Virus record (IMG/VR): IMGVR_UViG_3300030380_004460
Reading direction: 5' to 3' (one strand)
DNA: 64,000 nt
Source of the DNA: an uncultured virus (IMG/VR IMGVR_UViG_3300030380_004460)
Lineage: Duplodnaviria > Heunggongvirae > Uroviricota > Caudoviricetes
This document shows positions 2,879-64,000 of the stretch, in pieces. The notes under the pieces are model-generated. The model made no database searches. It was not told where the DNA came from and saw only the letters and a list, made by a program, of their open reading frames with translations. How positions within the stretch are numbered: the stretch's first letter is position 1; each line of letters opens with the position of its first letter. The position numbers and the translations under genes are program-made.

Positions 2879-3832
2879 ATGGGTCAAAATGATTATGGTG
2901 CAATTAATGTTATTTCCGACGAAGAAAGGGAGGCTTTAGGTTTGAGTGGCCCTTCTAGACCTGACGAAGAGGAAGGTGTATTCGAACAGATTGGTAAAAC
3001 AGCTGATAAAATCGGGGAGACAAAACTAGGCCAAAAGATAGGTTCAATACTTACTGTGTTTATACTCGCGATGTTTGGTAGTGGTAATGTTGACCTTGGT
3101 CAGTTTAGTGATATATGGGGTGACGAGGATGAACCGGCAATAAAGGGAGGATGCACAGACCCTACTGCAATAAATTACAAAGCTGATGCAGACTTTGACA
3201 ACGGCAGTTGTGTATTTCCCCCGCCAGTTATCTACGGATGTACTAATCCGGAAGCCGACAACTATAACTCGGCGGCTACCCACGACAATGGACGATGTCA
3301 GTTTTTAGGTGGACCAGTTGATAACGGAACCCACAATGAAACACAAACGAATGAGACTGTTTACGGATGTATGGATTTCGACGCATTGAACTATAATGAC
3401 CGTGCAGAAGAGGATGACGGGTCTTGTGAATACGAGGAGTACGATTGTACACCTAACTCAACTTATTTTTATGATGGATTAGAATACGGAAACTATTCTA
3501 GAGAATATAACACTTTGAATATTACTGTGGATATTGATACAGACTGTGACCAAGAGGCACTGCCCGTGATGGTAGGGTATGACGTAGGACATATCAAAGT
3601 GGTAGACAACGAAACCGTGTGGAACGGTTATATGTGGAACGATTACTTTTTCAATGTCACAGGTTGGGAAGGTAATGAGTACAATCTTACATCCGGCCCA
3701 GAATGGTTTACTGAACCATACACTGGGTGGTATATGATGTATGTCAATTTGTATGCAGACTGGGGAAGAAACGGTACTTACGAATATGTAGATTATTTCT
3801 TAATAAATAATATTGTATTGGAGGAGGAATGA
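2879..3832 (+). CDS. Membrane-anchored acidic surface protein with three GC(T/M)..NY..A..D.G.C repeats
   Basis: TM-like IGSILTVFILAMFG; repeats GCTDPTAINY..DNGSC, GCTNPEADNY..DNGRC, GCMDFDALNY..DDGSC; many N-x-S/T sequons. Confidence 0.8.
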   Translation: MGQNDYGAINVISDEEREALGLSGPSRPDEEEGVFEQIGKTADKIGETKLGQKIGSILTVFILAMFGSGNVDLGQFSDIWGDEDEPAIKGGCTDPTAINYKADADFDNGSCVFPPPVIYGCTNPEADNYNSAATHDNGRCQFLGGPVDNGTHNETQTNETVYGCMDFDALNYNDRAEEDDGSCEYEEYDCTPNSTYFYDGLEYGNYSREYNTLNITVDIDTDCDQEALPVMVGYDVGHIKVVDNETVWNGYMWNDYFFNVTGWEGNEYNLTSGPEWFTEPYTGWYMMYVNLYADWGRNGTYEYVDYFLINNIVLEEE

Positions 3833-15000: not shown

Positions 15001-18000
15001 TGCTGGTAAAGTAGGTATAGGCACAACTTCACCAAACAGTAAAATGACAGTTCAAGGTGACCTTGACATTCCACGCGGTTCTAGATTTAGAGCAGGTTCT
15101 ACTGACAGTAATCAAGGTATAGATATTTATCACAACAACGATGGTAGTTCATCATTTAATGGTAATGTCGTATTCGAAGGTAGGTCTTCTGGTGGAGATG
15201 TCGTTTTCCGTAATTTAGACCACGGGCAAGATTATAAATTTTACGCAGAGAACGATTCTGGTACAGAACAGTTAATAATGAAGATTGACGGTACTGAAGC
15301 AGCTGTGGGTATAGGAGAAGGAAGTACTGGATTAACTACAGCTAATGGTGCGTATTTACACGTTACTGGTTCTTCAAACTTACTTGCTAATTTCTTATCA
15401 TCAGATGGTATAGGAGAAATACGAGTAGGAGATAGTTCAAAGTATACTAGATTATTAACAGCTGGTAATCAATTTAAGATAATGCCTTTTGATGGTGTTG
15501 AGTTGATGGTACTTGATGGTAGTACAGAAAAGGTTGGTATAGGTACAAATGCACCCGGTGAAAAGCTAGATGTGAGAGGTAAAATATTAGTAGACCAGTA
15601 TTTAAGATTACAAAGAAACACAAGCACCAACGGATTAAATTTAACTGATAGTGGAGGTAACGCAGTCCCTGTGCACACTAGAGCAGGATTCTTTGGTGAT
15701 AGTTATTCAATGACTCCAGATATTGGTGAGGTTATATTATATAGTTCAACCACTGGTTCTTCAACTGCTACAGCTGGTATGGTTACATTCGCAAGTAGAA
15801 ATGATGCTGGAACTCATATACCTTATGCTGAAATAGAAGGTATAGCATTCGATGATACTGCTAGTGGCGAAGATGGTCATATAGTATTTAGAGTAGAAAA
15901 AGCTAGCACTATGACTGAACAGATGAGGTTAACAGAAACTGGATTAGGTATAGGCACAACTTCACCTGCTTATGAATTAGATGTTAGCTCTGGACATATG
16001 AACGCTGCAAGACTCTATCTAAATGACGCTAACAATTACATAATGGGTGACTCTGAAACTATGTATCTTAGAGCTCACAATGATATGTATTTCAATATAG
16101 ATACACCAAATGATTCTACAACTAGACATTTCATATGGAGAGCCAATACTTCTTCTGAAAAAATGAGATTAGGAGAAGATGGTATACTTGAAGTAAAATC
16201 TGGAGGTAAAGTAGGTATAGGTACAGCTGCACCTAATGTTGAATTAGATGTAGCTGGTGATGCAAGAATAAGAGGTTCCAATAAACTATACTTTGGAGAT
16301 ACAGATACTACAGAATATATATCTACTAACGGAACTGACGATTTAAGAATACACGCTTCAGACACTGTTTTATTTGATGGTGATGGTAAGAGTATATTTA
16401 GAACTCCTTATTTAGCTTTAGAAACTAGTGCAGCATCTGAAAAGATGAGATTCGATATAGATAATGGAAGATTTGGTATAGGCACAAATTCACCTTCTAC
16501 TAAATTAGATATCATAAGCACAACGGAACAAGTAAGGTTTGGTTATGACAGTAGTAATTACTTATCGTTTAATGTAGACAGTACTGGTAATACTGTAATA
16601 CAAGCTAAAACAGGTAACTTAGAATTAAAAACTGATACATCATCTCACGACGTTAGAGTTGATTCAAAAGGTAAATTTAGAGTAGATTTGGGAGATTCTA
16701 ATGGTGGGCACTATGCACGTATAAGAGGTACTAGTAACACCCCAGTATTGATGGCTAAGTCTAATGGTTTAGTAGGTATAGCTACAGAGTCACCCAATGA
16801 AACATTAACAGTTGAAGGAGTGTTATCTTTAGATGAAACTTCTGCTCCATCAGCTACTTCTGGTTATGGTAAAATATACGTTAAGTCTTCAGACAGTAAA
16901 CTATACTTTATGAATGATTCTGGAACTGAGACAGATTTAACAGCAGGAGGAGGAAGCAGTGTCAGTTTTGGTAGTGACAATCAAATACCATTTACTAATT
17001 CAGGGGGCGATGACTTCGATTATTCTGCTAATTTAACATTTGATGGAAGTACTCTTATCACTGACGCTGATATTCGAATATTAGATGGTGAAAAATTATT
17101 ACTTGGTACTGACAGTAATTTTCAAATTTATGGTAGTGCCGGTTCTACAAAATACATAACTACACTTTCAGAACAATTATTAATATGGAATCAAGATTCT
17201 TCTAGTGCACCAATCAAATTACAAGCTACAGATACATCTAACGGTATTCAATTTAATATTGCAGGAACTGAAAAAGGTAGATTTACATCTACAGGTTTAG
17301 GTATAGGTACAACTGCACCTTCTTACAAATTAGATGTTAATGGGGACGCAAATGTTTCAAGTGTTCTATACTTAGGTGATTCCGATACTAAATTATATAG
17401 AAGTTCTAATGATTTATATATAAGAGCTACTTCTGATATACTTTTAAATGACACAGGTGGTAATGTAGGTGTAGGAATAGACCCTACTTCTAAATTACAC
17501 GTCAAAGGTGAATTAGATATTCAAAGTGGTAATCAAACTATTCTTATGGGAGCTGGTAATAGTTCAACATCTAGAAATGATAATGCTCTAAAACTAGCTA
17601 GAGTTGGATTAGCACATTATGAGAATGATGAAGCAGCAGCAGCTATGATATATGCATCTTCAGATGGAACTGATAATGCAGTAGCTATCGGTGGTGGAAC
17701 ATCTGGTATGAATGCAGCCACTAAATTACAATTTTTTACAGCTGCTAATGATACAACTACTGAAGGCACAGAAGTAATGCGTATTACTAATAACCAAAAA
17801 GTAGGTATAGGAACAAGTGCACCTGATTCTAAATTACACGTTGATGGTGACATTCGACTTAATGGTTCAGGTGACCATCTTATTTGGCCTAACAGAGTAC
17901 AATTAGATTCTAATGGTGGTACATTAGTGATGGAATCCTTAACTGGAAGTGATTCATTACTTGTATTAAAAAGTGCATCCTCACAGGATATAGGCATAAG

Positions 18001-19396
18001 ATTTAATGTTGGAGGTAATTCCAAAGCAGATATAAATTATCACGCAGATACCGACAATAGATTAAAAATTGATTCTAATGAAGCTATTGCTTTCGAAGAA
18101 GCTGGCAGTGAAATTATGCGTATTGCTGGAGGTAAAGTAGGTATAGGTACAACTACACCAGCCCAATATTTACACGTAAAATCTGGTGATACTGACCAAG
18201 CATTAAAGTTACAATCTACTGATGGAAATGTAGATGCTACATTTACAGACTCTGGCGGTAGTGGTATTATACGATTCTCTACTGATACATTTAAATTTTA
18301 TACTGATTCAGGATATTCTAACAATCCTTTAAATTTAAAAGGTGTTAATGTAGGTATAGGCACAACTTCACCATCTGCAACATTACACTTAAAAAGTTCT
18401 TCATCTAACGTACCTACTTTCCTTATGGAAAACACCAACGCGGATGATTCTGCTGCGTCTCTTACATTTAATAAAAATAGTGCTTCTCCAGCAGACGGAG
18501 ATGAATTAGGTTATATAGAATTCAAAGGAGATGATTCAGCAGGTAATTCTGACACTTTTGCTGATATATATTCTAGTGCAGAAGATGTTTCTACTACAAC
18601 AGAAGATGGTTCTTTGACTTTTAGAACAAATACTGCTGGAACACTAACTAAAACAATGGTATTGAGAAGTTCTAAAGTAGGTATAGGTGAAACTTCACCT
18701 GACGATTTATTACACCTTAAAGGAAGTTCTAATGTAGATATAAGACTTGAAGATAGTGATGCCACTGGTATGGGCAATATGGACACTATGATTCGAGGAT
18801 TTAGACAAAGCACTGAAGCTTGGTTTTTAGGTACTGAAAGTGGTGCTGGTACACTTAAGTTGGGTATAACTTCTGGACACACTTCTGATTTGGCTCTTCA
18901 CACAGCAGGTACTGAAAGAGTACGTGTCACAGATACTGGTAAAGTAGGAATTGGAACAAATGCGCCTGATACTTCATTACACGTTCTTGGTTCAGTAACT
19001 TCATCTCCTACTAAAATGATTACTACAAAATCAGAATCACTTGTTCCTGCACAGGTAACATCAGTAAATATGTCTGAGGATACCTTTCAGTATGTTTGTA
19101 TAGCTGAAAATGGCGGTATAGTTGATTTAGCTTTACCGGGTGCTCCTGTTTTGGGTGAAACTTATAGAGTTGTTTGGGAAACTAGATTCTTCTTTTCAAC
19201 TGGGGGTAGTTTCCCTTCAATAGTAAGGTTATCTAGACCAATTAATAATATGGAGATAAATCAGACAGCTGCTACGTTTACTTTGAAATCTAATTCATCG
19301 AATAGCACTTTTCAAGGTATGGCTGAAATAGTTTGCATAGATGATGGTGCTTCATCCAACATTGTTAAATATGTAGTGCAGAACACTCAAGTTTAG
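12029..19396 (+). CDS. Giant fibre/spike protein with about 17 (V/L)GIGTxxP repeats
   Basis: 2455 aa; GNDTELQFNN, DTGM..ADTL, GIGT.SP...LHV repeats typical of triple-beta fibres; no C-terminal S74 chaperone visible. Confidence 0.85.
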   Translation: MPLSRKILPHGKAKIQSGVSGGSNVTSLNLDGTTLQLNQSNSQPQRTVNLNSLSGTPAGNDTELQFNNNGSFGGTDDLKWDGSKLKLGDSADTGNYFEVQGSDSENTYDVLVGRRRFPRISLNDRGSYTMQIWALGSELRFGTSAGSNTTAAFVVRSGSVGSVATAGAYTYGVFNVGTSDSINSSKVTIVDTAKPLTLAYDGSNYASLKVSSGGVLTVATNMANAGVADRFLFDGNHFRGTDTNAPSMRNETPSDTNPVFTFNNDVDTGMGRAAADTLSFIAAGAEQLRIADNVITLGDGVVLAPHASDNFTIDSPNGIILDGTSAANGVQYHDGGLEIMRISNSSSNPVIRTMVDAKDMIFQQFDGTEIVRFKDNLDVEVAGNLKITPDNKLYLGDDEFIDVNTSSSPNRMDFHIANLPRLHLDSGTLFSGQSGGPSMDLTPSSGIANYGFVGDTDTGMSRTGADTLVLMTGGTNAITIDSSQNVVIPANLTVQGTTTTIDSTTLSVKDKNIEMGVVSSPTDVTADGGGITLKGTTDKTFNWVDSTDSWTASEHIELASGKSFRINGNNVLNQTTLGSTVVGSSLTSVGTLTALTGGTGDLNWDSNTLFVDSSENRVGIGTNSPDVLFDVSGSAVIQSLRINANDGDRMRLFRRADNEMVIASESASLYLNSAFNGIYFEGDSSAVKMRLTGDGNLGIGTTGPDKRLHIHGATDTAFKMSNAGTGEGGSDGFEILQSNTGEIVLKNRESAALKFDTAGTNAMTIDSSQVTTFINTPVVGTMTSSDNSTKAASTAFVKAQSYGTGTIGGTATSGRIPFGDGNNSITSDANLTYNGSSFEVLVTSSIGHGGTKRTKFQHNNEVNYYSDGSETSGTVYYQYRGGDFNIARNAIHVKAYNDGSRPRYVGIGTTSPERKLHIMTASAGSPGYSTYANMILESDDHSYFQFSSPSNKVQGINFGDGNDNAGAIYYDHASDYMRFFAGASERMRIDSAGKVGIGTTSPNSKMTVQGDLDIPRGSRFRAGSTDSNQGIDIYHNNDGSSSFNGNVVFEGRSSGGDVVFRNLDHGQDYKFYAENDSGTEQLIMKIDGTEAAVGIGEGSTGLTTANGAYLHVTGSSNLLANFLSSDGIGEIRVGDSSKYTRLLTAGNQFKIMPFDGVELMVLDGSTEKVGIGTNAPGEKLDVRGKILVDQYLRLQRNTSTNGLNLTDSGGNAVPVHTRAGFFGDSYSMTPDIGEVILYSSTTGSSTATAGMVTFASRNDAGTHIPYAEIEGIAFDDTASGEDGHIVFRVEKASTMTEQMRLTETGLGIGTTSPAYELDVSSGHMNAARLYLNDANNYIMGDSETMYLRAHNDMYFNIDTPNDSTTRHFIWRANTSSEKMRLGEDGILEVKSGGKVGIGTAAPNVELDVAGDARIRGSNKLYFGDTDTTEYISTNGTDDLRIHASDTVLFDGDGKSIFRTPYLALETSAASEKMRFDIDNGRFGIGTNSPSTKLDIISTTEQVRFGYDSSNYLSFNVDSTGNTVIQAKTGNLELKTDTSSHDVRVDSKGKFRVDLGDSNGGHYARIRGTSNTPVLMAKSNGLVGIATESPNETLTVEGVLSLDETSAPSATSGYGKIYVKSSDSKLYFMNDSGTETDLTAGGGSSVSFGSDNQIPFTNSGGDDFDYSANLTFDGSTLITDADIRILDGEKLLLGTDSNFQIYGSAGSTKYITTLSEQLLIWNQDSSSAPIKLQATDTSNGIQFNIAGTEKGRFTSTGLGIGTTAPSYKLDVNGDANVSSVLYLGDSDTKLYRSSNDLYIRATSDILLNDTGGNVGVGIDPTSKLHVKGELDIQSGNQTILMGAGNSSTSRNDNALKLARVGLAHYENDEAAAAMIYASSDGTDNAVAIGGGTSGMNAATKLQFFTAANDTTTEGTEVMRITNNQKVGIGTSAPDSKLHVDGDIRLNGSGDHLIWPNRVQLDSNGGTLVMESLTGSDSLLVLKSASSQDIGIRFNVGGNSKADINYHADTDNRLKIDSNEAIAFEEAGSEIMRIAGGKVGIGTTTPAQYLHVKSGDTDQALKLQSTDGNVDATFTDSGGSGIIRFSTDTFKFYTDSGYSNNPLNLKGVNVGIGTTSPSATLHLKSSSSNVPTFLMENTNADDSAASLTFNKNSASPADGDELGYIEFKGDDSAGNSDTFADIYSSAEDVSTTTEDGSLTFRTNTAGTLTKTMVLRSSKVGIGETSPDDLLHLKGSSNVDIRLEDSDATGMGNMDTMIRGFRQSTEAWFLGTESGAGTLKLGITSGHTSDLALHTAGTERVRVTDTGKVGIGTNAPDTSLHVLGSVTSSPTKMITTKSESLVPAQVTSVNMSEDTFQYVCIAENGGIVDLALPGAPVLGETYRVVWETRFFFSTGGSFPSIVRLSRPINNMEINQTAATFTLKSNSSNSTFQGMAEIVCIDDGASSNIVKYVVQNTQV

Positions 19397-22214: not shown

Positions 22215-25200
22215 ATGAGCGATATAGAGTTTAACGGCACGGGCGGAATAATAGAAGGAAATCTTGGAGCAGCAAACGTTAATGTAAATCTTGACAGTAC
22301 TGTAGAGTTTAGCGGTGATGATTATATTACAGTTCCATCTGCAAGTGATTTAGATTTTGGAACTAATGATTTTTCTATATCTATGTGGGTCAAGTTTGAA
22401 GCAGGTGCTATATCTACTGCTGAACAACATTTAATAAATAGAGGTCAAGCAGGTCTTGCTAATAGTTTTACATTAAGAGTTAACAGTGCAGAAAATTTGT
22501 TTTTTAGAGTATCAAGTGCAAGTAACAGTGGTAATTATGATATAGACCCTAGTAATTTAGGAAGTTGGACACATATTGCGATTACATTAGATAGAAGTGC
22601 TAACGCAGTATTGTATGTCAATGGAGTAGCTAAAATTACGCAAGACATTTCTTCTCATTCATCTAATGCAATTTCTAATGCTCAATGGTTGATTGGCGGT
22701 GAGAATAGTGCAAGTCCAGCAAATTTATTCAAAGGTAATGTGGCAGATGTTAAATTCTTTGGAGATTTACTTACTGAAACAGAAATAAAACAATTAGCAT
22801 CTAAGATAAATGTAGACTCAGCTACGTTTGGAATAGACAACAGGAAAGCTTGGTATAAGATAAACGAAGGCAGTGGTCAAACTATAACGGACCACGATGA
22901 TTCAGGAACCGATTATGATGCAACAATGACAAACGGTACTTGGATATATGATGAATACAGTGTAGATGTATATGATAATAGTACAACGACAGATGGAACG
23001 TTTACAGTAACACAAGGAAAGGTAGAGGGTTTGGCTTTGTCATCTGTTGAGTTAAATGGTAGTGACGATTTTATTAACATAAATAATCCTTTAGAATCTT
23101 GGAGTGAGTCTGCACAAAAAACATTTGCACTTTGGGTTTACAACGATGGCAATGCTAGCGAAACTCGTATATTTAACACAGGGTTTGAAGATTCGGGTTC
23201 TAAAACCGCATTTGCTTTAGGTATGTCTTTTGGAACAGCTAATAGGCCGTTTTATTTTTTAAGAGATACAAGCGCAGGTGCGCTTAAAGCACAGTTTGGA
23301 GAGGTTCATCCGACAAACACTTGGATGCACTATGTTATAGTTCAAGATGGTGCTAATGATAAAGCATATTTATATCAAAACGGAGTATTACAAGAAACTG
23401 TAAGTAGTGTTGGAGAAATTAATGCAACAACTTCGGATAGTGCAAAGATAGGAAGGCATTGGGATAGTTCAGGCAATTTTTTTGATGGTAAATTAAGAGA
23501 TTTAAGATTATATGATTACGACTTTAGTGATGAGCAAGTAGCTTCACTTTATTCAGGTTATTATCCGCAAACGCCTTTACATCATTGGAAACTTGATGAA
23601 GGTTATACTTCAGGAACAACAGCTAACACAGCAGGTGCTTTTGAAGATTCAGGCACAGGGACAGATTATGATGCACAAGGTTCAGGATTAGTAAACGCAA
23701 GTTGCGTAAACGGCACTCTTGACCTTGACGGTTCACTTACGATAGCAGCTAACGGAACTTTGTCAGCACCAAGAGGTAATATGGCTCTTGCAGGTGTGAC
23801 AAGCAATGTAACTATGGATAATTTTGGAGTTTTTACACATAACAGTGGAACAGTAACACTTGACCATAGTGCTGATGTAAGTCAAATGATTAATAAAAAC
23901 GGAACAGTAGAACCTGTATTTTTTAATTTAACTCATAACAGAGCAGCAAACAGTTATCATATGTTTCTTAAAAATAATGTTACAGTCGAAAATACATTTA
24001 CAAACACCGCAGGTTTTATGAATTTAGCGGCTAATAAGACTTTAACTTTAGGAACAGACACTTCACAAGGAACATATACGGCTGGTTGGTCATCAGGAGG
24101 TATTAGGCCTGCTGGAACTAGCACTGGCAATCCTGCTCACGTTCACGGTAAGAATGTATTATTTCCAGCCATATTGGATTCAGGTTCAGGAGACCCTATT
24201 GATTGGAACAACGAAGCTCCTGATACAGAAATAAATATTAAATTTATAGATTACCAAAGAGATACTTCAACTGGAGGAGGCGGAACTAAAGTTACCTTAG
24301 ATGGGGATTGTGAGTTTGATGCCGTAACAGTAAGTAGTGGAGATACTTTAGATTTTAATGGACAAAGGGCTAGGTTTGGTAGCACGTTTACTAACTCAGG
24401 AACAATAGACTGTGATGGTGCTTTAATTTATTGTAATCAAGTAAATATTGATGGGACTACACAAAATACTAGCACTGCTGCAATAATCAATAACACCGCA
24501 GGTTTTAACGATATGAGTGATGGCCAATGGAAATGGATGGGTACTAATTTTGGAGCAGGTAGTGCTACTGAGTCAGGGACATTTACCAACACTGCTGCAA
24601 AAAGAGTGTGTATGTCAGGAATTATTGCACCGAATGATAATACAACTGTAGGAGATATGGTAATAGCTGCAGGGGCAACATATAACGCAGGAAGTTACAC
24701 TACGACAGTAGCAGGAGATTTTACTACCAGTGGTGGTCTGCTTGGCGCAAGTGCTTTGACATTTGACGGAACTGATGACCAAGTGGTTATTGCGGATGAT
24801 AACAGTTTAGATTTTACAACAGCTTTAACAATAGAATGTTGGTTCAAAACTACAGATGCACAAGGAACTTTTGTCGTTAAACAAGGCGGTTTTTACAGAA
24901 TAGAAACCAAAGATGGTAAAGCTAATTTCTTAATATTCACAGGTTCTAACAAAACAGTTGCAGGAACCTCGACAGTTAATGATGATAAATGGCATCATAT
25001 TGCAGCAACGTACGACCAAACAAGTATGAAAATTTATGTAGATGGTAAATTAGAAAATACGTTGGCAGAAACAGGTACAATGACTACTTCATCAAGTCAA
25101 TTAATTTTAGGTTCTGAAGGTAGTGCTACTTATTATACAGGTTCGCTTGATGAAATAAGATTATTTAATGTTGCTAAAACTCAAGCGCAAATAAGAACTG

Positions 25201-26171
25201 ATATGTTTCAAGGGGGAACTTTAGCAAGTTCAACAGGTTTAGTAGCTAGATATAAATGTGACGAAGGTTCAGGAACATCATTAGAAGATAGTAGCTCAAA
25301 TACAAACACAGGAACATTAACAAGTGCATTTTGGGCAGGAGCAGGAACATTTACACAAGGCAGTTCTACGCTTCTTATGTCTGGTACTGGCAAAAAGATA
25401 TTCTTTTTAGATAATGAAGAATTAAAACATTTATCTTGTACTGGGACTATAACATTAGATGGCGTTGGTGCAACTGGTAATGACTTAAAAATAAATGGTA
25501 ACGTAAGCATAGCTGGTTCATTAGCTTCTGAAGAAAATGAAAAACTATTTCTTCAAGGAGGTAGTATAACATTTACAGTAGGAACAGCGGCAACAAGTAT
25601 AGCAAATTTAAAGAATTTAATTGTAGCAAATCCTACCACAGTTACTCTTCCTGCGTTAACCACAAAACAAATACAAATGGAGTCAGGCGGAACTGCAACC
25701 GCAGGAGGAGACCTTACACTTACAACAGAGTTGTTAATAAATAGTGGAGGAACTTTTAACGCTAATGATAAAACAATAACTGCAAAAGTAGTTGATATGA
25801 ATGGGACAGGTGCATTTGCATTAGGCGCTGGTGCTTTAGTGTTAAATGATAATTCAGGTGGATTTGAATCACAATCTACTTCAGTTTTCACCGCAGGTCC
25901 CGGATGTACAGTAGGTGGTGATGCTTCAGGACAAAAAGTTCCTTTTGAATCACAAAACGGTTTTCAGATAGTTGGAGATATAGATGACTTAAATGTTACT
26001 AATGAAGAACTTACTGTTGTAGGCACTGTAACAAACTGTACTGGTGATATTATACAATTTACACCCGGACACGACACAACTTTAAGTTTAGAAACAGACA
26101 CGGCAGAGGATAGAGATATAAGGTTAGGAGGACCTAGTTTGGACAACGCGAACCATTTGGTTCCAGAATAA
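22215..26171 (+). CDS. LamG/concanavalin A-like multi-domain virion protein
   Basis: Three LamG-type domains (FSISMWVK..WTHIA..LYVNG; WMHYV..LYQNG; IECWFK..WHHIAATYD..IYVDG) interleaved with beta-helix segments. Confidence 0.85.
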   Translation: MSDIEFNGTGGIIEGNLGAANVNVNLDSTVEFSGDDYITVPSASDLDFGTNDFSISMWVKFEAGAISTAEQHLINRGQAGLANSFTLRVNSAENLFFRVSSASNSGNYDIDPSNLGSWTHIAITLDRSANAVLYVNGVAKITQDISSHSSNAISNAQWLIGGENSASPANLFKGNVADVKFFGDLLTETEIKQLASKINVDSATFGIDNRKAWYKINEGSGQTITDHDDSGTDYDATMTNGTWIYDEYSVDVYDNSTTTDGTFTVTQGKVEGLALSSVELNGSDDFININNPLESWSESAQKTFALWVYNDGNASETRIFNTGFEDSGSKTAFALGMSFGTANRPFYFLRDTSAGALKAQFGEVHPTNTWMHYVIVQDGANDKAYLYQNGVLQETVSSVGEINATTSDSAKIGRHWDSSGNFFDGKLRDLRLYDYDFSDEQVASLYSGYYPQTPLHHWKLDEGYTSGTTANTAGAFEDSGTGTDYDAQGSGLVNASCVNGTLDLDGSLTIAANGTLSAPRGNMALAGVTSNVTMDNFGVFTHNSGTVTLDHSADVSQMINKNGTVEPVFFNLTHNRAANSYHMFLKNNVTVENTFTNTAGFMNLAANKTLTLGTDTSQGTYTAGWSSGGIRPAGTSTGNPAHVHGKNVLFPAILDSGSGDPIDWNNEAPDTEINIKFIDYQRDTSTGGGGTKVTLDGDCEFDAVTVSSGDTLDFNGQRARFGSTFTNSGTIDCDGALIYCNQVNIDGTTQNTSTAAIINNTAGFNDMSDGQWKWMGTNFGAGSATESGTFTNTAAKRVCMSGIIAPNDNTTVGDMVIAAGATYNAGSYTTTVAGDFTTSGGLLGASALTFDGTDDQVVIADDNSLDFTTALTIECWFKTTDAQGTFVVKQGGFYRIETKDGKANFLIFTGSNKTVAGTSTVNDDKWHHIAATYDQTSMKIYVDGKLENTLAETGTMTTSSSQLILGSEGSATYYTGSLDEIRLFNVAKTQAQIRTDMFQGGTLASSTGLVARYKCDEGSGTSLEDSSSNTNTGTLTSAFWAGAGTFTQGSSTLLMSGTGKKIFFLDNEELKHLSCTGTITLDGVGATGNDLKINGNVSIAGSLASEENEKLFLQGGSITFTVGTAATSIANLKNLIVANPTTVTLPALTTKQIQMESGGTATAGGDLTLTTELLINSGGTFNANDKTITAKVVDMNGTGAFALGAGALVLNDNSGGFESQSTSVFTAGPGCTVGGDASGQKVPFESQNGFQIVGDIDDLNVTNEELTVVGTVTNCTGDIIQFTPGHDTTLSLETDTAEDRDIRLGGPSLDNANHLVPE

Positions 26172-28134: not shown

Positions 28135-28628
28135 TGTCACAAGACCACATTAATATTATAGAAAGAGCAATCATAGATAAACTACGCGCAGACCACTCTG
28201 GGATTAGAGTATACCCTCAGTTTCCAGAGGCAAACGATGCTGAGTATCCTTGTATAGTTATGGAGTTAACAAGTTCAGGTGAGTTTGATAGGTTTATGGG
28301 TGAGAAAGTATCTTTTGGTGGCGAAACAAAAACAGGGGAGTTAGTTGGTTTAGTATTTACTTTTCATATTATAATAGATAAAAATTCACAAAAACAAATA
28401 GATACCACAGGTAACGGTAGTCCTGATACAATGTTCAAACAAAGGAGGTTGTTAAACTATTTATTATTAAATGTTGCTAACAGTATAACTGACACTGATT
28501 TTTCTACTGCAACAACAGAGATTGTAGAAAGAAACTTAGGAAATTGGATTGATATAGGATATGACCCTGAGTTAGAGTTGTATGGTGGTAGTTGTGTTTA
28601 TTCAGTAGTTTTTAAAAATTATAGATGA
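28134..28628 (+). CDS. Probable tail terminator
   Basis: IERAIIDKL..VY..P..YPCIV pattern; position in the neck module. Confidence 0.55.
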   Translation: MSQDHINIIERAIIDKLRADHSGIRVYPQFPEANDAEYPCIVMELTSSGEFDRFMGEKVSFGGETKTGELVGLVFTFHIIIDKNSQKQIDTTGNGSPDTMFKQRRLLNYLLLNVANSITDTDFSTATTEIVERNLGNWIDIGYDPELELYGGSCVYSVVFKNYR

Positions 28629-30472
28629 AACGAAGTAAACGATTAATAAGAATTGGTTTGAATGTTTTATACAGACGCAAAAGAGATAATGTTGTAAAGT
28701 ATATGTATCGTAGGGTAGGTCAGAATCCCAACGAAAGATACAGTTTTAGATGGCAACCACAGTATTCGCCTAACAACGTTGATGATAAAGAATATCTTAA
28801 GAAAAAAACTTTTAGTTGGCTTACTTGGGCAAGATTTAAAGCTAAACAATTACCTCCATCTACTACTAGTTTTAACTGGAGAACTGGTGAGTTTTCTAAA
28901 AAAAGACCCGGTGATAACGAACGTGACCCTAGGAATAATTGGAGAGCTGCGCATTATTTTTGGAGTAGTAGAGTTGGTGGCGATTTGCGTATGGATGAAG
29001 AAACTGAAGACTCTGACGAACTAATGAGGAGAGTGCACAGATTTTACAATAAAGCTTTGATGCAACATAATTTTGTTGGTAAATCACAAGAAGCTGTTAT
29101 GGACTTGTTAATGAGAATAAAAAGACAGACTGGTGACCGTATGGGGGATATAGGATACAAAGCAATCATCAGAAGTTCTGGAGATACAACTGCTAGGTCT
29201 ACAGAAGAGAAGTTAATTTATTTAGCACCACATTTACATAAAATGAAATCTTTTAAAGAAAGGCCTACAGAGAAAAAAATAGTAGATAAAGTAAAACAAT
29301 TGATGCCTAAAAGAGCTGGTAAAGAACAACAAATAGATGTTATATACAGAAATAAAAATGGTAAATTAACCCCTGAAGGTAAGATGTTTGATAAATTTTT
29401 TAAAGCACAAGAAGGTAAAATGCTTGGTGCTTTGAGTCCAAATACAAAAACAAGTACTGGTTTAGATGTTACCGAAAAAACTTTGATAGGTAGATTTGGT
29501 GAACAAACAAAGGGTGATAAAGTTATAGCATCCCAACTATCATCCTTACCAACTAGTGTAAAAGCTTTAAGAGGTAAAACTGCTAAAGACAGGTTTGTTG
29601 CTCTTGTTCCTATATTACAACAAATGAGGGCAGAAATTAACAATCCAGATACTCAATTCGAGTTAAGAGGACAGGCTCAAAGAAGATTTGAAAAGGATGC
29701 AAAGAAAAAGGGTTATTACGAATTTGCAATACCTACTGGTGCTGGTGATTTACTTATTTTAGGATTGAGTAATAAGGGTGATAAAATAGGTTTATCTGGA
29801 GGTCTAATACCAGATGTAGGTATAAATATGGATATAGGACAAGCTGCAGCTAATCATATGTTAGGTGAAAAAGCTGGTCAAGCAGCTAGAAGTACATTAA
29901 GAATGATGAGTGGCAAAAATCAATTTGAGTATGATGGTAAACTTATACAATATAGAAATTATTACGCTAATAAATTATTACACGTAGGATATCCGGGTAA
30001 AGTTACTGATACACCCTTTGCTCCTACTATGCATACTAATATAATGTCTAGAGGTGATTTCGTTACTCATTTATCTACTTTAGTTAACGAAGCATATGGT
30101 GGTTCATTTCAGTCAGGAACTTGGCAGGATATGTTTGACCCTAAAACTAAATTTTCTAATAATAATGCATTTCATCAGTGGGCTATGGAGTGGATTGCAG
30201 AAAGTAAAACATTAGAAGATAAAGTAAACAAAACTATGTTTTCCCAAAGGTATTTTACTTGGGCTAGTGATAAAGTGTTTGTAGGTAAAAGAAGTCACAG
30301 ATGGGCAGGAGATATAAAAACGTGGAAATCACCTGCATCAATTAGACCGTTTGTTTATACTTCTAAAGTAGGAACTAAACAAGCAGAAGCAGCTAATTTA
30401 ACAAGACAGGGCGTTTTTACAGATTTTAGAACCGCTATGTCATCTCTTTTTGGCACTAGGTATACGAGCTAA
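28625..30472 (+). CDS. Large basic hypothetical protein in the neck/tail module
   Basis: 615 aa, K/R-rich, ATGA-coupled; no family recognised. Confidence 0.7.
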   Translation: MKRSKRLIRIGLNVLYRRKRDNVVKYMYRRVGQNPNERYSFRWQPQYSPNNVDDKEYLKKKTFSWLTWARFKAKQLPPSTTSFNWRTGEFSKKRPGDNERDPRNNWRAAHYFWSSRVGGDLRMDEETEDSDELMRRVHRFYNKALMQHNFVGKSQEAVMDLLMRIKRQTGDRMGDIGYKAIIRSSGDTTARSTEEKLIYLAPHLHKMKSFKERPTEKKIVDKVKQLMPKRAGKEQQIDVIYRNKNGKLTPEGKMFDKFFKAQEGKMLGALSPNTKTSTGLDVTEKTLIGRFGEQTKGDKVIASQLSSLPTSVKALRGKTAKDRFVALVPILQQMRAEINNPDTQFELRGQAQRRFEKDAKKKGYYEFAIPTGAGDLLILGLSNKGDKIGLSGGLIPDVGINMDIGQAAANHMLGEKAGQAARSTLRMMSGKNQFEYDGKLIQYRNYYANKLLHVGYPGKVTDTPFAPTMHTNIMSRGDFVTHLSTLVNEAYGGSFQSGTWQDMFDPKTKFSNNNAFHQWAMEWIAESKTLEDKVNKTMFSQRYFTWASDKVFVGKRSHRWAGDIKTWKSPASIRPFVYTSKVGTKQAEAANLTRQGVFTDFRTAMSSLFGTRYTS

Positions 30473-42076: not shown

Positions 42077-43079
42077 ATTATTAATTGATAACACGTTGAC
42101 TGAATTTGTTTCTTGTGATTTAAAAGTGCGTGGCAATAATACTGCTGCACAATTAAACTTTACTGTAACTCAACCCGAACTGTCATATCGTAAGTATTGG
42201 AATAAAGAAGTTGTTTTGTTTTTTGATATATCTGATGCTACTCCTATATTTAGAGGTAGGATTGTTAACAGTGATATAGTTGATAATATAGGGCTTAGAT
42301 TTACTGCTGTTGATAATTTTGGTTTTTTAACTGGTCACGACAAAGCAAAGGTTATGCTTACTGATGAATCTAATGTTGACGGGTTGAGTGGAGGTAATGC
42401 AATAAAAAAATTAATACAACTTGCTAATTTAGATAGTGTGGTTGGTACAGATTATATTGGTGACACTAATCCCATAATAAATCCAGACAAAATGAGAGGA
42501 GATGTAATCATTTTAGATGCTATAAAAAGTATTTTGAAACAAGTTGTAAATTATAACTCAACTGTTACTAGAGAAAATTACGTCAGAAGATTTGACGATG
42601 GTTCAAAAACTCAAATAAAAATTGATTTAGCTGCTGATTTAGATAATGCTACGCCAATAAAAGTATATAGTTATGATAATATTATAACTTTTAAAGTCAA
42701 CAATCGTAAAATACCCACTATAATTAATGTAAAAGGTGATAACTCTTTTGGGACTTACAAACACGATTCGTTTATTGATTCTTATGGAGAAAATCCTTTG
42801 AGTGTTGATAATAAACAATTAAAATCAAAAGCTGAGTGCGTAGAGTTTGGATACAAGATATTCGAAGCAAATAAAAAAAATCAATATGAATACACTATAG
42901 AAACAGCTGACGGTGTTTACTTAAATGAAGGTGACGTTGTTGAAATAATTAGTGATGATGTAGACGTGTCTGGAAACTTTAGAATTATTGGTAAATCTTT
43001 ATCTTTAGGTTCTAACGATTATAAATTACAGTTAACTATAAACAAACAACCACCTATACTATCTCAATTCTTATTGTAA
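42057..43079 (+). CDS. Probable baseplate hub/tail-tip protein
   Basis: PIFRGRI..FTAVD..L..GDVVEI..GNFRI pattern; GGAGG RBS before the ATG at 42057. Confidence 0.6.
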   Translation: MVTHTPKLLIDNTLTEFVSCDLKVRGNNTAAQLNFTVTQPELSYRKYWNKEVVLFFDISDATPIFRGRIVNSDIVDNIGLRFTAVDNFGFLTGHDKAKVMLTDESNVDGLSGGNAIKKLIQLANLDSVVGTDYIGDTNPIINPDKMRGDVIILDAIKSILKQVVNYNSTVTRENYVRRFDDGSKTQIKIDLAADLDNATPIKVYSYDNIITFKVNNRKIPTIINVKGDNSFGTYKHDSFIDSYGENPLSVDNKQLKSKAECVEFGYKIFEANKKNQYEYTIETADGVYLNEGDVVEIISDDVDVSGNFRIIGKSLSLGSNDYKLQLTINKQPPILSQFLL

Positions 43080-43159
43080 CAAAATGCACAGTATCTTTTA
43101 CCTTCATATGTATATATAAAAGCCCTTTTTAAACAACCAGAACACTCTAGTACTCTCAA
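43064..43159 (-). CDS. 31 aa Zn-finger micro-protein (below cutoff)
   Basis: MRVLECSGCLKRAFIYTYEGKRYCAFCYNKN (TTG start); overlaps the 3' end of the convergent + gene. Confidence 0.5.
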   Translation of the reverse strand: MRVLECSGCLKRAFIYTYEGKRYCAFCYNKN

Positions 43160-43161
43160 AC

Positions 43162-43398
43162 TTAATCAGTCTTTCTTGGTAACTGTTGACCAGAACCGTA
43201 TGCTTCTGTATTGGAAGGATTTTCAGTCCTATACCTAATACCTTCACCGATAGTAAATGAACCATACTTGAAACCTACACCACTGTCGTTTAACTCAGCT
43301 CCAATGTAAGGGTGTGGGTCTTCCATATTGATACCGTTTCCACCACCGTTTCGTCCCATTTTGCGTCCATATCCAGTTACATCTTTTTCAAATGTCAC
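43162..43398 (-). CDS. Hypothetical Gly-rich protein
   Basis: AGGTGA RBS before the GTG at 43398. Confidence 0.6.
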   Translation of the reverse strand: MTFEKDVTGYGRKMGRNGGGNGINMEDPHPYIGAELNDSGVGFKYGSFTIGEGIRYRTENPSNTEAYGSGQQLPRKTD

Positions 43399-45256
43399 AC
43401 TTATCACCTACACAAGCATACTCTTTTCCGCCTTCAGTTGCATCCTGAAGTTCGTACTCTGAAAGCTTGCTGTAGTTAATATCGGGGAAATTCTTTATAA
43501 GGTTTTCGTAGGTATAGTGGTCTATTTCCTCATATGGGGCTAAAGTATACTGTCCGCCATCATATGGTAGGAAAGATACACCGTTGATTATATCCCAGTT
43601 TTTGTATACCCAGTTACCCACTTCGAACCATTCATCTTCTTTTACATATACAGTCATACTAGCGTTGTGTTCACACCAGTTTAATTGTAAGTTCTTGTAG
43701 TGTTTGAGTTGGTCCATAGCTGTCATATCCTTTCTGGTCATACAACCTTCTGGTGATTTAACTGGAAACTCTAATACCCAAGTAGTTGCATCTTCTTCTG
43801 TCTGTCCGTTTTCTGGAACACAAGGTACACCTTGGTCCTTCAACATTGCAAGTAATGGGTCAGTAGCAGCAATCCTATATCTTCTAATGTAGTATTGCGA
43901 GTATCTTGGGTGACACCCACTAGCTGAATCTACTAGTTGTGAAACTGTGCCTGAAGGCTTGACGCAAGTGGTAGAAACAGGCATATTAACATCTAGTGCT
44001 GTAGATGCTTTACGAGAAATGCGCAAAACACGCGATTTAAGGGCTTTTAAGGCCTCCGAGTTCATTAACAGAGGATTATCCATTTGACCAGTCAAACTGA
44101 CTCCTAAAAGCCGTTCTACGTCACAGTTCTTTTTCCACTGTTTCCTAAGATATGGAAAGTTAGTAAATGTAGATTGTAAAACACCAAGCCAAGTTGCTGT
44201 CTCCACCTTGTCTAATAATGAATCTAAATCATCCTCTTCTCTAACTACTACCTCAGACAGGTTACAAAATTCCATATCACGTAACATAATTTCACCACAA
44301 GGGTTAGTTCCTTGTATTTTTGATGAATATCTTCTGCTAGGTGCTTGGTTCTGCGCGGATTCTAAATTAAATATCCCACGTTCACCACTGCCCGATTTTG
44401 CCAACACACCCCATTCTACTAAGAAATCAGCAGCTGTTGGTTTTTCCCTGTATATAGCTGAGTTATTTGCCATAGCTCTTCTGATAGGAAACGGCCAATC
44501 TTTTGCGTGTCGCATATCTTCATCGTTTAAGTCCGATAGTGATATCTGCGAACTACGTCTTACTCCACCTGCCACTACTATCTCTGCAATCTGATTAGCA
44601 ATGTCGTGACATTCTAAAGAGGTTAGTTTTCTACCTTGTGCGTTGTGCATAGTTTCACGTATAAAATCGTGTAACTTAATGAGTGGTTGCGGTCCTGATG
44701 AACGACCACCCATTGTACTTAGACGGGCCCCCTCCGGTCTTAGTTGTGAATAATCAAAGTAAAGGTTTTGTCCTTCATATAAACTTGTCATAAGTGTTTT
44801 TACTGAATCTGCCCATCCTTCTCTAGAGTCATCTATAGTTACTCTAGCAATGTCTTTGCCTGATTTTATTTCAGGAATAGATGGTAACTTACTAACTTCA
44901 TCTTCTTCTACAGAAAAACCAAACCCAGTACCACACATTAGTATGTGTAAACATTCTGCAAATGCTTCAACACAGTTCAACTTCGCGAAAGAACAGTTGT
45001 AGATAACAGTGTTGTCCTTTTCTGCTGCTGGTCCTGCGGACCAAAGGAACCTCATAGAAGGCATAACAGCAAAGTCTAACATATACTGTCTTATCTTTTT
45101 AACAGTTTTTTCTGGTATCTTTTCACCGTTTTTTAAAATTAAAAAATCAATAAATCTTTCTATTGTTTCTGGCCACTCTTCACGTCGACCTTCATCTTCC
45201 ATCCAACGGGAATACGTTCTCTTGTATATAAATTCGGCTACTTCATTTTTAAACAT
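43388..45256 (-). CDS. nrdJ: Class II (B12-dependent) ribonucleotide reductase, RTPR-type
   Basis: KRTYSR, YNCSF, GGVRRS, TNPCGEI, FCNLSEV, TCVKPSGT, C-terminal CVGDKC. Confidence 0.95.
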   Translation of the reverse strand: MFKNEVAEFIYKRTYSRWMEDEGRREEWPETIERFIDFLILKNGEKIPEKTVKKIRQYMLDFAVMPSMRFLWSAGPAAEKDNTVIYNCSFAKLNCVEAFAECLHILMCGTGFGFSVEEDEVSKLPSIPEIKSGKDIARVTIDDSREGWADSVKTLMTSLYEGQNLYFDYSQLRPEGARLSTMGGRSSGPQPLIKLHDFIRETMHNAQGRKLTSLECHDIANQIAEIVVAGGVRRSSQISLSDLNDEDMRHAKDWPFPIRRAMANNSAIYREKPTAADFLVEWGVLAKSGSGERGIFNLESAQNQAPSRRYSSKIQGTNPCGEIMLRDMEFCNLSEVVVREEDDLDSLLDKVETATWLGVLQSTFTNFPYLRKQWKKNCDVERLLGVSLTGQMDNPLLMNSEALKALKSRVLRISRKASTALDVNMPVSTTCVKPSGTVSQLVDSASGCHPRYSQYYIRRYRIAATDPLLAMLKDQGVPCVPENGQTEEDATTWVLEFPVKSPEGCMTRKDMTAMDQLKHYKNLQLNWCEHNASMTVYVKEDEWFEVGNWVYKNWDIINGVSFLPYDGGQYTLAPYEEIDHYTYENLIKNFPDINYSKLSEYELQDATEGGKEYACVGDKCDI

Positions 45257-52015: not shown

Positions 52016-52095
52016 GATATCACCACTACAAACCCAAAAAATATAGCTATAATAAAAGCTATCAATAACATCCATTCTGCTTCATTTAGAAACAT
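52012..52095 (-). CDS. 27 aa membrane peptide
   Basis: MFLNEAEWMLLIAFIIAIFFGFVVVIS; GTGA overlap with the downstream gene. Confidence 0.5.
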   Translation of the reverse strand: MFLNEAEWMLLIAFIIAIFFGFVVVIS

Positions 52096-52237
52096 ATTTA
52101 TCTACTTCCCCCCAATCTGTGACGTGACATTCAGGACATCCCCATCCATTAAGGATACCAAAAGCACCTTCATACTTTTTCTTAAACATTACACAGTTAC
52201 ACGTTTTACAGACTGGAATAGCTTTTATTTTTTTCAT
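52082..52237 (-). CDS. Zn-ribbon micro-protein
   Basis: CKTC..CPEC; ATGA-coupled to polB. Confidence 0.6.
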   Translation of the reverse strand: MKKIKAIPVCKTCNCVMFKKKYEGAFGILNGWGCPECHVTDWGEVDKYVSK

Positions 52238-54462: not shown

Positions 54463-54734
54463 CCTAGCGGCCCCTTACTATTCTGTGGTAAGTCATCATC
54501 ATCTCCGTCTACCGTAGGTAGTATGCTAATTAAATCCACTGCCTCTTCTATACTCAACGACCATACCTTATGCATAATATGTTGTTCTGTAGGTTGCGCT
54601 CCCATAATAACAGGAGCAGTCTCTTCTGCTTTTTTCTTATGATGTATTGCGCATCCTCTCAGCAAATCTAACCACTGTTCTCGGTTTATTGCTTGTCTGT
54701 TCTTTTCTAAATCTTTCATTTCTTCTTCTGTCAT
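54459..54734 (-). CDS. Hypothetical protein
   Basis: 91 aa; ATGA-coupled on both sides. Confidence 0.7.
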   Translation of the reverse strand: MTEEEMKDLEKNRQAINREQWLDLLRGCAIHHKKKAEETAPVIMGAQPTEQHIMHKVWSLSIEEAVDLISILPTVDGDDDDLPQNSKGPLG

Positions 54735-55015
54735 CTCAAAAACTCCGGTACTTTATCTTTTATTCTATTTGCTTGTGTCTTAGTATATCTAAAAACAACG
54801 TCGCCTTTAGTGTCCTCTTGTACAGTCCACTTCTTAACTATCACTAAATCTCCAACTCTCACCCATACTTTCTTTTTCATCTTTCCTACAATACGGCACA
54901 TTCTATTTTTTTCATCTTCACAGATTACTGTTGCTCTAGCTGCGCCATTCATTTCCCTAACCACACCAAACATTTCACCTCTTGGTGCGTAGGGTAGTTT
55001 ATTCATACCAACCAC
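54731..55015 (-). CDS. eif1a: Translation initiation factor aIF-1A/eIF-1A homologue
   Basis: GEMFGVV..M.G....V.C.D...R.CRI.GKMKK.VW.R.GD.VIV..W..Q...GDV..RYT..Q. Confidence 0.9.
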   Translation of the reverse strand: MVGMNKLPYAPRGEMFGVVREMNGAARATVICEDEKNRMCRIVGKMKKKVWVRVGDLVIVKKWTVQEDTKGDVVFRYTKTQANRIKDKVPEFLR

Positions 55016-62610: not shown

Positions 62611-63324
62611 TTAAAATCTTGGGTGCGGCATACCTCCAATTTGCCAATCTCTCGTAACTTCACCGTCAGTCCATATAAGATGCCCTGCTCTCATAATTTG
62701 TCTACCATCTTCACTAAATGAACCATTAAATGTGTTGACCCATTCATCATAAGTCATATGCATCAATACATATAGTCTGTAGCTCATAGCTCGTTTTAAC
62801 GAACTAGAATGATAGTCAGGAAATACTTCTTCGCAATATGCTTGGTAAAGTTCATTGTGAGTATCATCAAGCCTTAAATCTCTGTTTGATGAGTATATCT
62901 CAGGAATATTCACGTTGCCTGTAATAAAGTGATGTGACCCGCTGTAATGCTCATCAGCAGTGCGATAAGGCCATCCTTGTCTTTGACCAGTTTTATACAG
63001 CACAATATCTCCTGTGATTGAATCGTCATCAAGACCACCCAGCAATCTAGTGTGTATGATGCTGTCATACCTTTGCGTTTCGAACTTGATTGTCCGACCG
63101 TTCTTTTTGTAGAGCACAACCCATCTTCTACAACGGGTTTCACCTTGTATACGATGAAATATCTCAAGTTCTTGCTCAGTAAACTGATTGCGTGTGCAGT
63201 TTCTCACTAGCGAAGCGTGAGGCCTTGAAAAGTCATCCATTATATCACCTAACTCAGCGATAATATGAACTCTTTCGCGGTCTTCTTTGAACTTCTCAGC
63301 GTTGATTACTATTGTCTGTGTCAT
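62611..63324 (-). CDS. Hypothetical protein flanked by the two BHB elements
   Basis: 237 aa; GGAG RBS lies in the outer helix of element A. Confidence 0.75.
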   Translation of the reverse strand: MTQTIVINAEKFKEDRERVHIIAELGDIMDDFSRPHASLVRNCTRNQFTEQELEIFHRIQGETRCRRWVVLYKKNGRTIKFETQRYDSIIHTRLLGGLDDDSITGDIVLYKTGQRQGWPYRTADEHYSGSHHFITGNVNIPEIYSSNRDLRLDDTHNELYQAYCEEVFPDYHSSSLKRAMSYRLYVLMHMTYDEWVNTFNGSFSEDGRQIMRAGHLIWTDGEVTRDWQIGGMPHPRF

Positions 63325-63331
63325 TTGTGTT

Positions 63332-63443
63332 CTCCATTTGTGGGGAAGGAAGCCGTAGGAACAGGGGAAATTGCAAAACCCCTATGTTGAAAGCGAAACA
63401 AACTAAACAAACTGTGTTTGACTTCCTTCCTGTCCACTGCGAG
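63332..63443 (-). ncRNA. BHB element A (canonical helix-bulge-helix-bulge-helix)
   Basis: CUCgCA-GUGG-[ACA]-GGAAGGAAGUC ... GGCUUCCUUCC-CCAC-[AAA]-UGGAG. Confidence 0.68.
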
Positions 63444-63469
63444 TGTTGTGCTGCGGGGAGACCGGAGCA

Positions 63470-63787
63470 CTATTTTTTTATCCTCCTGAGTAAACTCTTT
63501 TCACGGCGAGATGTACCAATGATTCTTTTTCTTTTGACAGCTCTTGCGTGTTCAAGTTGCTTACGAAGTACTTCTTTGCGTTTTTCTGTGTTAGCAATAA
63601 ACACAGTTCTACCGTCATCATTTGTGAATACAGAGTATCGTAACTCTGTTCGCTTCATTTCATCTGGAAAGAACTCTCCAGAACAGCACGCACATCTGTA
63701 ACATTCGTGATTGTGTTTAGTTTCATTAACTAATCTAACATTGCCGCCATCGTCACAATCAGGGCATTCTATCTTTACTTGAACCAT
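63470..63787 (-). CDS. Zn-ribbon protein with basic tail
   Basis: CPDC..CACC; GGAGG RBS; TAATG coupling. Confidence 0.7.
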   Translation of the reverse strand: MVQVKIECPDCDDGGNVRLVNETKHNHECYRCACCSGEFFPDEMKRTELRYSVFTNDDGRTVFIANTEKRKEVLRKQLEHARAVKRKRIIGTSRREKSLLRRIKK

Positions 63788-64000
63788 TATTCTTCCTCCA
63801 TATCAAAAGCATTTGCTTGTTCTGCAATCTTCAAAGCATCTTCGAAGTCTTGCATTTCTTTGATTGAAATCACTGCGTCAGTTCCGTCGCCACCACTACC
63901 GATTACGATGTACTGATTGACTTCTGATAACTCCACAAAGAAGTCGCTCCATCCCTCATCAATCACAATAGATTTGTGAGACGCACTGAGATAGACGTGA
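63787..64000 (-). CDS. Partial hypothetical protein (5' end outside the window)
   Basis: Open frame ..IDEGWSDFFVELSEVNQYIVIGSGGDG..FDMEEE-stop. Confidence 0.6.
   Translation of the reverse strand, partial: HVYLSASHKSIVIDEGWSDFFVELSEVNQYIVIGSGGDGTDAVISIKEMQDFEDALKIAEQANAFDMEEE

Follow-up and report, generated by a model that had tools for sequence, protein, structure and literature searches.

The archaeal tRNA splicing endonuclease EndA cuts bulge-helix-bulge (BHB) motifs after the second base of the bulge, and helices of at least about 2 bp border such a motif on both sides. The hBHBh' form of the motif is defined by a 4-bp central helix flanked by two 3-nt bulges (PMC4090602). The tRNA introns are described there as 11-129 nt long, and after excision they are circularised and can serve as functional small RNAs; the intron of tRNA-Trp, for example, carries a C/D box small RNA (PMC4090602, PMC12558985). 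Archaeal 16S and 23S rRNAs are flanked by BHB processing stems, and EndA cutting followed by ligation gives rise to circular intermediates (PMC7714728, PMC12558985). Few EndA substrates other than tRNA and rRNA are listed in the surveyed literature, namely the cbf5 message and one Haloferax leader. The cbf5 pre-mRNA of Crenarchaeota contains a BHB intron (Watanabe 2002 as cited; Yokobori et al. 2009, PMC2738675). The 5' UTR of HVO_1309 in Haloferax volcanii contains a 46-nt BHB intron, whose excised piece is circular and which is cut by recombinant EndA, and the leader sequence is conserved among relatives (PMC7714728, Schwarz et al. 2020). Splicing was not demonstrated for 12-bp insertions in one archaeal virus (PMC2738675), and a literature search of limited coverage found no BHB motif in a viral transcript.

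Here we describe element A, a candidate BHB cassette on the minus strand of a viral sequence of 64,000 nucleotides (IMG/VR record IMGVR_UViG_3300030380_004460), which is referred to as the window. The best explanation of the sequence comparisons reported below is that element A is a conserved non-coding RNA cassette with a canonical hBHBh' motif as its closing stem.

By analogy, the closest experimentally shown case is the HVO_1309 leader intron. Both place a BHB in an untranslated part of a protein-coding message without tRNA or rRNA. The HVO_1309 intron, however, belongs to a cellular gene, measures 46 nt and has been demonstrated by experiment, whereas element A is viral, encloses 94-153 nt, lies between two cistrons and is predicted; it further differs in enclosing a conserved hairpin and a U-rich tract of its own. 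The likeness to cbf5 would lie in EndA-type splicing of a protein-coding transcript, as proposed here for element A. The cbf5 intron interrupts the reading frame and has to be removed for the protein to be made, whereas the predicted cut in element A lies 3' of the stop codon of the upstream gene, so that no protein would be spliced at this site. Like the tRNA introns, element A combines a 4-bp helix with two 3-nt bulges, its 94 nt fall within the range of 11-129 nt, and its layout matches that of a pre-tRNA with an intron at position 37/38; unlike them, it has no tRNA body around the motif. The rRNA processing stems resemble element A in being long stems with a BHB at the base, but they enclose kilobase-long rRNA, whereas element A encloses 94-153 nt of viral RNA.

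Predicted fold and layout of element A

Element A (63443-63332, minus strand) is located in an intergenic gap of 145 nt (63469-63325, minus strand) between genes for a 105-aa and a 237-aa protein. RNAfold folded the minus strand of 63475-63320 with -45.8 kcal/mol (z = -2.80), and 2 of 200 shuffles were equally or more stable. The MFE and centroid structures had the same 3-4-3 geometry, made up of an outer helix, a 4-bp helix and an 11-bp inner helix.

In the outer helix, CUC(g)CA (63438..63443) pairs with UGGAG (63332..63336), giving 2 bp, a 1-nt bulge and 3 bp. The 3' strand of this helix contains the GGAG ribosome-binding site of the downstream 237-aa gene, and is followed by AACACAA and then by the AUG start of that gene. 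The central helix is formed by GUGG (63434..63437) and CCAC (63340..63343). Directly 3' of each central-helix strand is a 3-nt bulge, and both bulges are unpaired in the MFE structures of the window and of the distant relative L026. The 5' bulge (63431..63433) is ACA in the window and AUA in the 7 other distinct sequences that were collected, and the 3' bulge (63337..63339) is AAA in all 8, with an unpaired probability of 0.91-1.00 in the variants folded with longer flanks.

The inner helix pairs GGAAGGAAGUC (63420..63430) with GGCUUCCUUCC (63344..63354; RNAfold and alignment) through 11 bp, one of them G-U. Between its strands lies an interior of 65 nt that holds the U-rich tract GUUUGUUUC (63395..63403), which was invariant in 8/8 aligned sequences including L026, and the hairpin P2 (63361..63385), which consists of a stem of 5-7 bp with covarying pairs and a conserved loop of 11-13 nt (UUUUGCAAUUU). 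A further small hairpin of the MFE structure, P0 (63448..63470, GUGCU-C-CGG-UCUCC-CCG-C-AGCAC), has as its first base the last base (G) of the TAG stop codon of the upstream 105-aa gene. All of these features were read on the minus strand.

The cuts would presumably fall after the second bulge base, at 63432/63431 and 63338/63337, if the rule for tRNA position 37/38 is carried over. The predicted excised RNA computed from the bulge positions is 94 nt long (63338..63431) and includes the U-rich tract; the corresponding lengths are 93-97 nt in close relatives and 153 nt in L026.

The first-pass annotation of this locus had described a canonical BHB on the minus strand in a viral intergenic region without tRNA or rRNA. 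Its coordinates and base pairs were reproduced throughout by the sequence check and RNAfold, the 3-4-3 geometry was recovered in both MFE and centroid structures, and the 94-nt piece (63431-63338) that it had given follows correctly from the cut rule. The non-coding location also held, as a 49-aa ORF across the gap was not conserved. ARAGORN found 0 tRNA genes in the 64-kb window, and no curated Rfam family reached its gathering score at element A, in agreement with the described lack of tRNA or rRNA; in E-value mode, Rfam returned only two matches, at E 0.93 and 3.3, which are at the level of chance and fall well short of their gathering scores. No C or D box was found in the interior by eye or by Rfam. 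Scans for sigma-70 promoters and terminators returned nothing at element A, archaeal promoters being outside the coverage of the promoter scan.

The virus, the flanking genes and the likely host

By its gene content, the window belongs to a tailed virus. It encodes a large terminase, a portal, a capsid, a tail tape-measure-type protein and a family B DNA polymerase, and further a B12-dependent ribonucleotide reductase, glycosyltransferases, a DNA methylase, and Cas4-like and RecU-like nucleases. Related contigs are marine. In GenBank phage records, there was no DNA match to the locus and none to the capsid or aIF-1A proteins; the terminase and the DNA polymerase had only remote matches of 20-25% identity in GenBank phages, which did not place the host.

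The gene upstream of element A (63470..63787, minus strand) encodes a 105-aa zinc-ribbon-like protein with a basic tail, whose family comprises 25 clusters at 59-100% identity. The downstream gene (62611..63324, minus strand) encodes the 237-aa protein, which belongs to a small family: a HMMER search against 1.84 billion representatives returned 8 proteins at E <= 0.001, and the family was absent from the species-representative genomes searched. Neither protein had a match in Pfam or PHROG, the ESM Atlas search for the function of the flanking proteins gave no usable match, and the AlphaFold model of the 237-aa protein had a mean pLDDT of 39.1 and was unusable.

An archaeal host is likely, because one of the viral genes is for a translation initiation factor of archaeal type, aIF-1A (54731..55015, minus strand; NCBIfam NF003084). 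This protein scored 107.9 bits against the NF003084 cut-off of 91 and matched Pfam eIF-1a with an E-value of 5.3e-19. Its best solved structures were named aIF1A or 'Translation initiation factor 1A' (E 2.4e-24), followed by eIF1A chains at about 1e-11, and all 19 solved-structure matches were aIF1A or eIF1A, with bacterial IF-1 by name at 0/19. Genomes G002 and G004 also encoded an aIF-1A above the NCBIfam cut-off. The earlier suggestion of an archaeal host is thus in keeping with aIF-1A, whereas its narrower placing in Thermoplasmata or Poseidoniales is conjectural. The literature search returned nothing relevant on virus-encoded aIF-1A. No EndA or RtcB gene was found in 3/3 virus records (G001-G003), which are fragments of 28-78% completeness, so the host enzymes would be needed for any processing of element A.

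Several other features of the window were observed. Gene orientation and GC skew switch together at about 43000-44000, with the structural genes on the plus strand to the left of the switch and the replication and early genes on the minus strand to the right. The structural module includes a 2455-aa ORF (12029-19396, plus strand) without a Pfam match. A 1318-aa protein (22215-26171, plus strand) has three concanavalin/laminin-G-like lectin domains, and an N-terminal stretch of it matches the lectin fold with which clostridial neurotoxins bind their receptors; the simplest reading is that of a putative receptor-binding tail fibre. Two gaps at 1-272 and 558-691 are GC-rich (0.49-0.53) and very strongly folded. 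Positions 13-156 contain pairs of adjacent 19-nt direct repeats (13-50 and 100-137) that share a TCTCA motif, along with repeated UGAGA motifs on the minus strand, and the region runs past the start of the window. It could represent an array of the iteron type, or else several small RNA hairpins clustered together.

Conservation in close relatives

The family of the downstream 237-aa protein was used to collect 2 viral and 13 metagenome loci. Three of them (L004, L007 and L008), whose contigs break off inside the element or directly ahead of it, were left out; the part that they retain duplicates other rows. Seven distinct sequences were obtained from the window plus 11 loci, and addition of L026 gave 8. 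The central helix is 4 bp long and both bulges are 3 nt in 8/8 distinct sequences, the inner helix has 11-14 bp in all of them, and the outer A-U and C-G pairs next to the 3' bulge, together with a third C-G pair, can form in every one.

In the alignment of the 7 close sequences, all 4 central pairs and all 11 inner pairs were invariant and none was compensatory; the U-G pair of the inner helix was likewise present in 7/7. The three of the five outer pairs nearest the bulge (A-U, C-G, C-G) were kept in every sequence, with one C-G to U-G change elsewhere in the helix and the two distal pairs broken in 2/7. P0 had 6 of its 8 pairs invariant and two end pairs broken in 2/7 sequences. In the P2 stem, 4/7 pairs were changed on both sides with pairing kept. 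The invariance of the stems despite the covariation of P2 points to a sequence-specific constraint that would go beyond EndA alone, and hints at an additional sequence-specific partner for the stems of element A.

The full motif was present in the MFE structure of 4/7 close variants, and the outer helix was not predicted in the other 3, whose outer-pair probabilities were 0.25 (L011), 0.07 (L013) and 0.07 (L014). The shortness of the outer helix counts against cutting by EndA. With longer flanks, the outer-helix pair probability was 0.04-0.11 in 3/6 variants, and GGAG was mostly unpaired there. At first pass it had been proposed that the outer helix gates translation by including the GGAG site; since the site is mostly unpaired in these 3 of 6 long-context variants, such masking is not conserved, which weakens the proposal.

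A distant relative with compensatory changes

A distant relative, L026, was found through the alignment of the zinc-ribbon family. It is located on G004, a viral contig of 75.5 kb that is estimated to be complete. Its zinc-ribbon homolog is 46% identical to the 105-aa protein of the window, and the gene order is as in the window: a peptidase-like gene, the zinc-ribbon gene, a gap of 208 nt, a 259-aa gene (the homolog of the 237-aa gene) and a homolog of the 95-aa gene, with an extra 52-aa ORF between the gap and the 259-aa gene. On sequence comparison, the element in this gap is the ortholog of element A.

The gap folded into the same 3-4-3 geometry in both MFE and centroid structures (z -3.84), with 0/200 shuffles as stable. 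The outer helix is CCA/UGG, with 3 contiguous pairs, and the bulges are AUA and AAA, still 3 nt each. The central helix is GCAG/CUGC in L026 versus GUGG/CCAC in the window, so that 2/4 pairs are changed on both sides. The inner helix, which begins with GGGAAGGAG..., has 14 bp, and 3 of its first 9 pairs are changed on both sides. The interior measures 153 nt versus 94 nt in the window and retains GUUUGUUUC, and AAAUGGAGA is retained as well, though the downstream gene is a different one, the 52-aa ORF. MAFFT misaligned the 5' arm of L026, and the arms were compared with those of the window by a bulge-anchored script that was checked against the independent fold; the covariation in the BHB helices comes from this one distant lineage. 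Loss of the 3-4-3 geometry in related genomes, which had been named beforehand as the observation that would speak against the motif, was not seen, L026 keeping the geometry via compensatory changes.

Comparison with chance

Element A was chosen by a reader seeking the BHB shape over many windows, and its resemblance to the motif was compared with what chance produces. By bare pattern score, element A (43) was the best site on both strands of the window, with the next best at 38; as scores of at least 43 occurred in 3/14 dinucleotide shuffles of one 64-kb strand, the score is not significant alone. In a fold-based scan (160-nt windows, step 20) that required the motif in the MFE structure, two sites were returned from both strands of the window, element A and a weak site at 28563-28658. 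The latter is inside a coding sequence, its region is no better folded than shuffles (z -0.12), and it was judged to be chance. The same scan found 0 sites in two shuffled 64-kb sequences, and on both strands of the 75.5-kb G004 the ortholog of element A was the sole site.

The 3' side of the motif was searched in IMG/VR with the pattern TCCTTCC-N4-5-AAATGGAGA, which returned 27 loci. An upstream BHB partner was present only in 3 contigs that were already in the set, and 24/24 unrelated loci with the 3' motif, which serve as a negative control, had none. An intron-less allele was sought with a 17-nt exon-junction pattern; its 3 IMG/VR matches were all unrelated GC-rich contigs without flank similarity and were attributed to chance. 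The 23-nt 3' core was not found in species-representative genomes, where a cell copy of element A was looked for.

Nucleotide conservation of element A was 0.66-0.90 per 50-nt bin, which is high for non-coding DNA and is not above that of the best coding bins nearby. The conservation and covariation in relatives show that the structure of element A is real.

Other bulged hairpins in the same gene array

Bulged leader hairpins are common in this gene array. Element B (62597-62488, minus strand; z -3.97) lies between the 237-aa gene and the next gene. In it, an AAA bulge separates a basal helix of 6 bp from a helix of 13 bp, and its shape is not that of a BHB. Its stems covary in relatives, and its interior is replaced wholesale between lineages. 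Its basal helix varies in length, with 6 bp (window), 4+3 bp (L010) or 3 bp (L026), and the 3-nt bulge is kept, never with a second bulge. A third bulged hairpin (52076-52233, minus strand; z -2.58) lies in the gap between the DNA polymerase gene and the gene at 52075. Its stems of 11 and 5 bp are separated by an AAA bulge, it stops immediately ahead of the ribosome site of the latter gene, and it is likewise not a BHB. Among the bulged hairpins of the array, the 4-bp spacing and the second bulge are fixed only in element A. The spacing in element A appears to be specifically constrained, because the basal helix of element B drifts over 3-6 bp and has no second bulge.

A motif of the P0 type, (Y)UGCUCCGGUC(N)CCCCGCAGCA(S), is located 5' of element A in the window, and a near-identical copy is located 3' of element B in L026 (about 3054-3076). 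The P0-type hairpin looks like a movable module.

Alternative explanations

One alternative is that element A acts in cis, as a leader or intercistronic hairpin left uncut by EndA. It could be a protein-bound bulged stem, bound for instance by the adjacent basic zinc-ribbon protein, or a stabiliser or insulator of the message, with the 3-4-3 geometry needed by another factor or incidental. We consider this explanation unlikely, though deserving of serious weight. It would account for stems whose sequence stays the same throughout the 7 close variants while P2 covaries, and it agrees with the occurrence in the same array of element B and the hairpin at 52076-52233, both of which have a 3-nt A-rich bulge on the 5' strand and a non-BHB shape; element A also ends 3 nt before a ribosome site, as does element B. 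However, L026 keeps the second bulge and the outer pairs despite the altered sequence of its central helix, and the helix of element A stays at a constant 4 bp, whereas the basal helix of element B drifts. To our knowledge, no archaeal factor except EndA is defined by two 3-nt bulges placed 4 bp apart, which argues against an uncut hairpin. So does the expectation that an archaeal cell would in any case cut a canonical BHB that folds stably.

Much less probable is that the locus acts as DNA, as an inverted-repeat element such as a promoter or operator, or a replication or packaging signal. The two arms are indeed perfect, sequence-invariant inverted repeats in the close variants, and there is an A-rich stretch just upstream. 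Pairs are nevertheless kept through G-U wobbles, namely the inner U-G pair in 7/7 sequences and the outer C-G to U-G change, and G-U pairing works in RNA and not in duplex DNA, so these pairs count against a DNA element. The conserved asymmetric 3-nt bulges and the compensatory changes in P2 and L026 argue in the same direction, as do the empty sigma-70 and terminator scans at the element, with archaeal promoters lying outside that scan. The idea that the region is a chance resemblance without function, or a short protein-coding gene, has been largely refuted by the sequence comparisons, and we give it hardly any credence. The pattern score was matched in 3 of 14 shuffles, and the 49-aa ORF (63470-63321) starts with GTG downstream of an AGGAGGA motif and overlaps the next gene in an ATGA. 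This ORF is broken by stops in 3/7 distinct sequences and by frame-shifting indels in others, for which reason it was rejected as a gene and the gap is taken as non-coding. Against chance stand the conservation across four lineages with compensatory changes and the fold-based scan, which picked the orthologous site in two genomes.

Proposed processing and its implications

Processing of element A by host EndA is the best reading, and we lean towards it with limited confidence. Element A would be transcribed with its neighbours in the early-gene array, since the genes here share one strand and leave little space between them. The RNA would then fold, and host EndA, reading shape and not sequence, would cut each 3-nt bulge behind its second base, releasing an RNA of 94 nt (63431-63338), or of 153 nt in L026. 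A host RNA ligase such as RtcB would probably circularise the released piece, and the mRNA ends would be either joined or left apart. If joined, they would give a shorter leader in which the GGAG site is unpaired; if left apart, the downstream message would begin one base before UGGAG. A look-up of RNA runs containing 62611-63800 returned none, and one metatranscriptome run, searched at 85% likeness, had no cover of the element A locus, which says nothing on its expression.

A more speculative version, which we put forward tentatively and regard as somewhat doubtful, is that the excised piece is itself the product: a family of marine archaeal viruses would employ EndA and an RNA ligase of the host to produce a small RNA of 94-153 nt, circular and stable, that may act in trans on targets of the host or the virus, and the same cut may separate or re-tailor the flanking early messages. 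The proposed circle is predicted to carry the conserved U-rich tract (GUUUGUUUC) and the conserved hairpin loop. In a search of the window for targets in trans, the complement of the P2 loop was not enriched, with 4 matches versus 4.96 expected.

If this more speculative version is true, the circle would be the first virus-encoded RNA produced via the archaeal BHB pathway. The two natural variants, with interiors of 94 nt and 153 nt and different central helices, allow a direct comparison. A conserved and covarying BHB cassette in viruses that infect uncultured marine archaea would mean that viruses exploit the tRNA-splicing machinery of their hosts for message processing or for circular RNAs.
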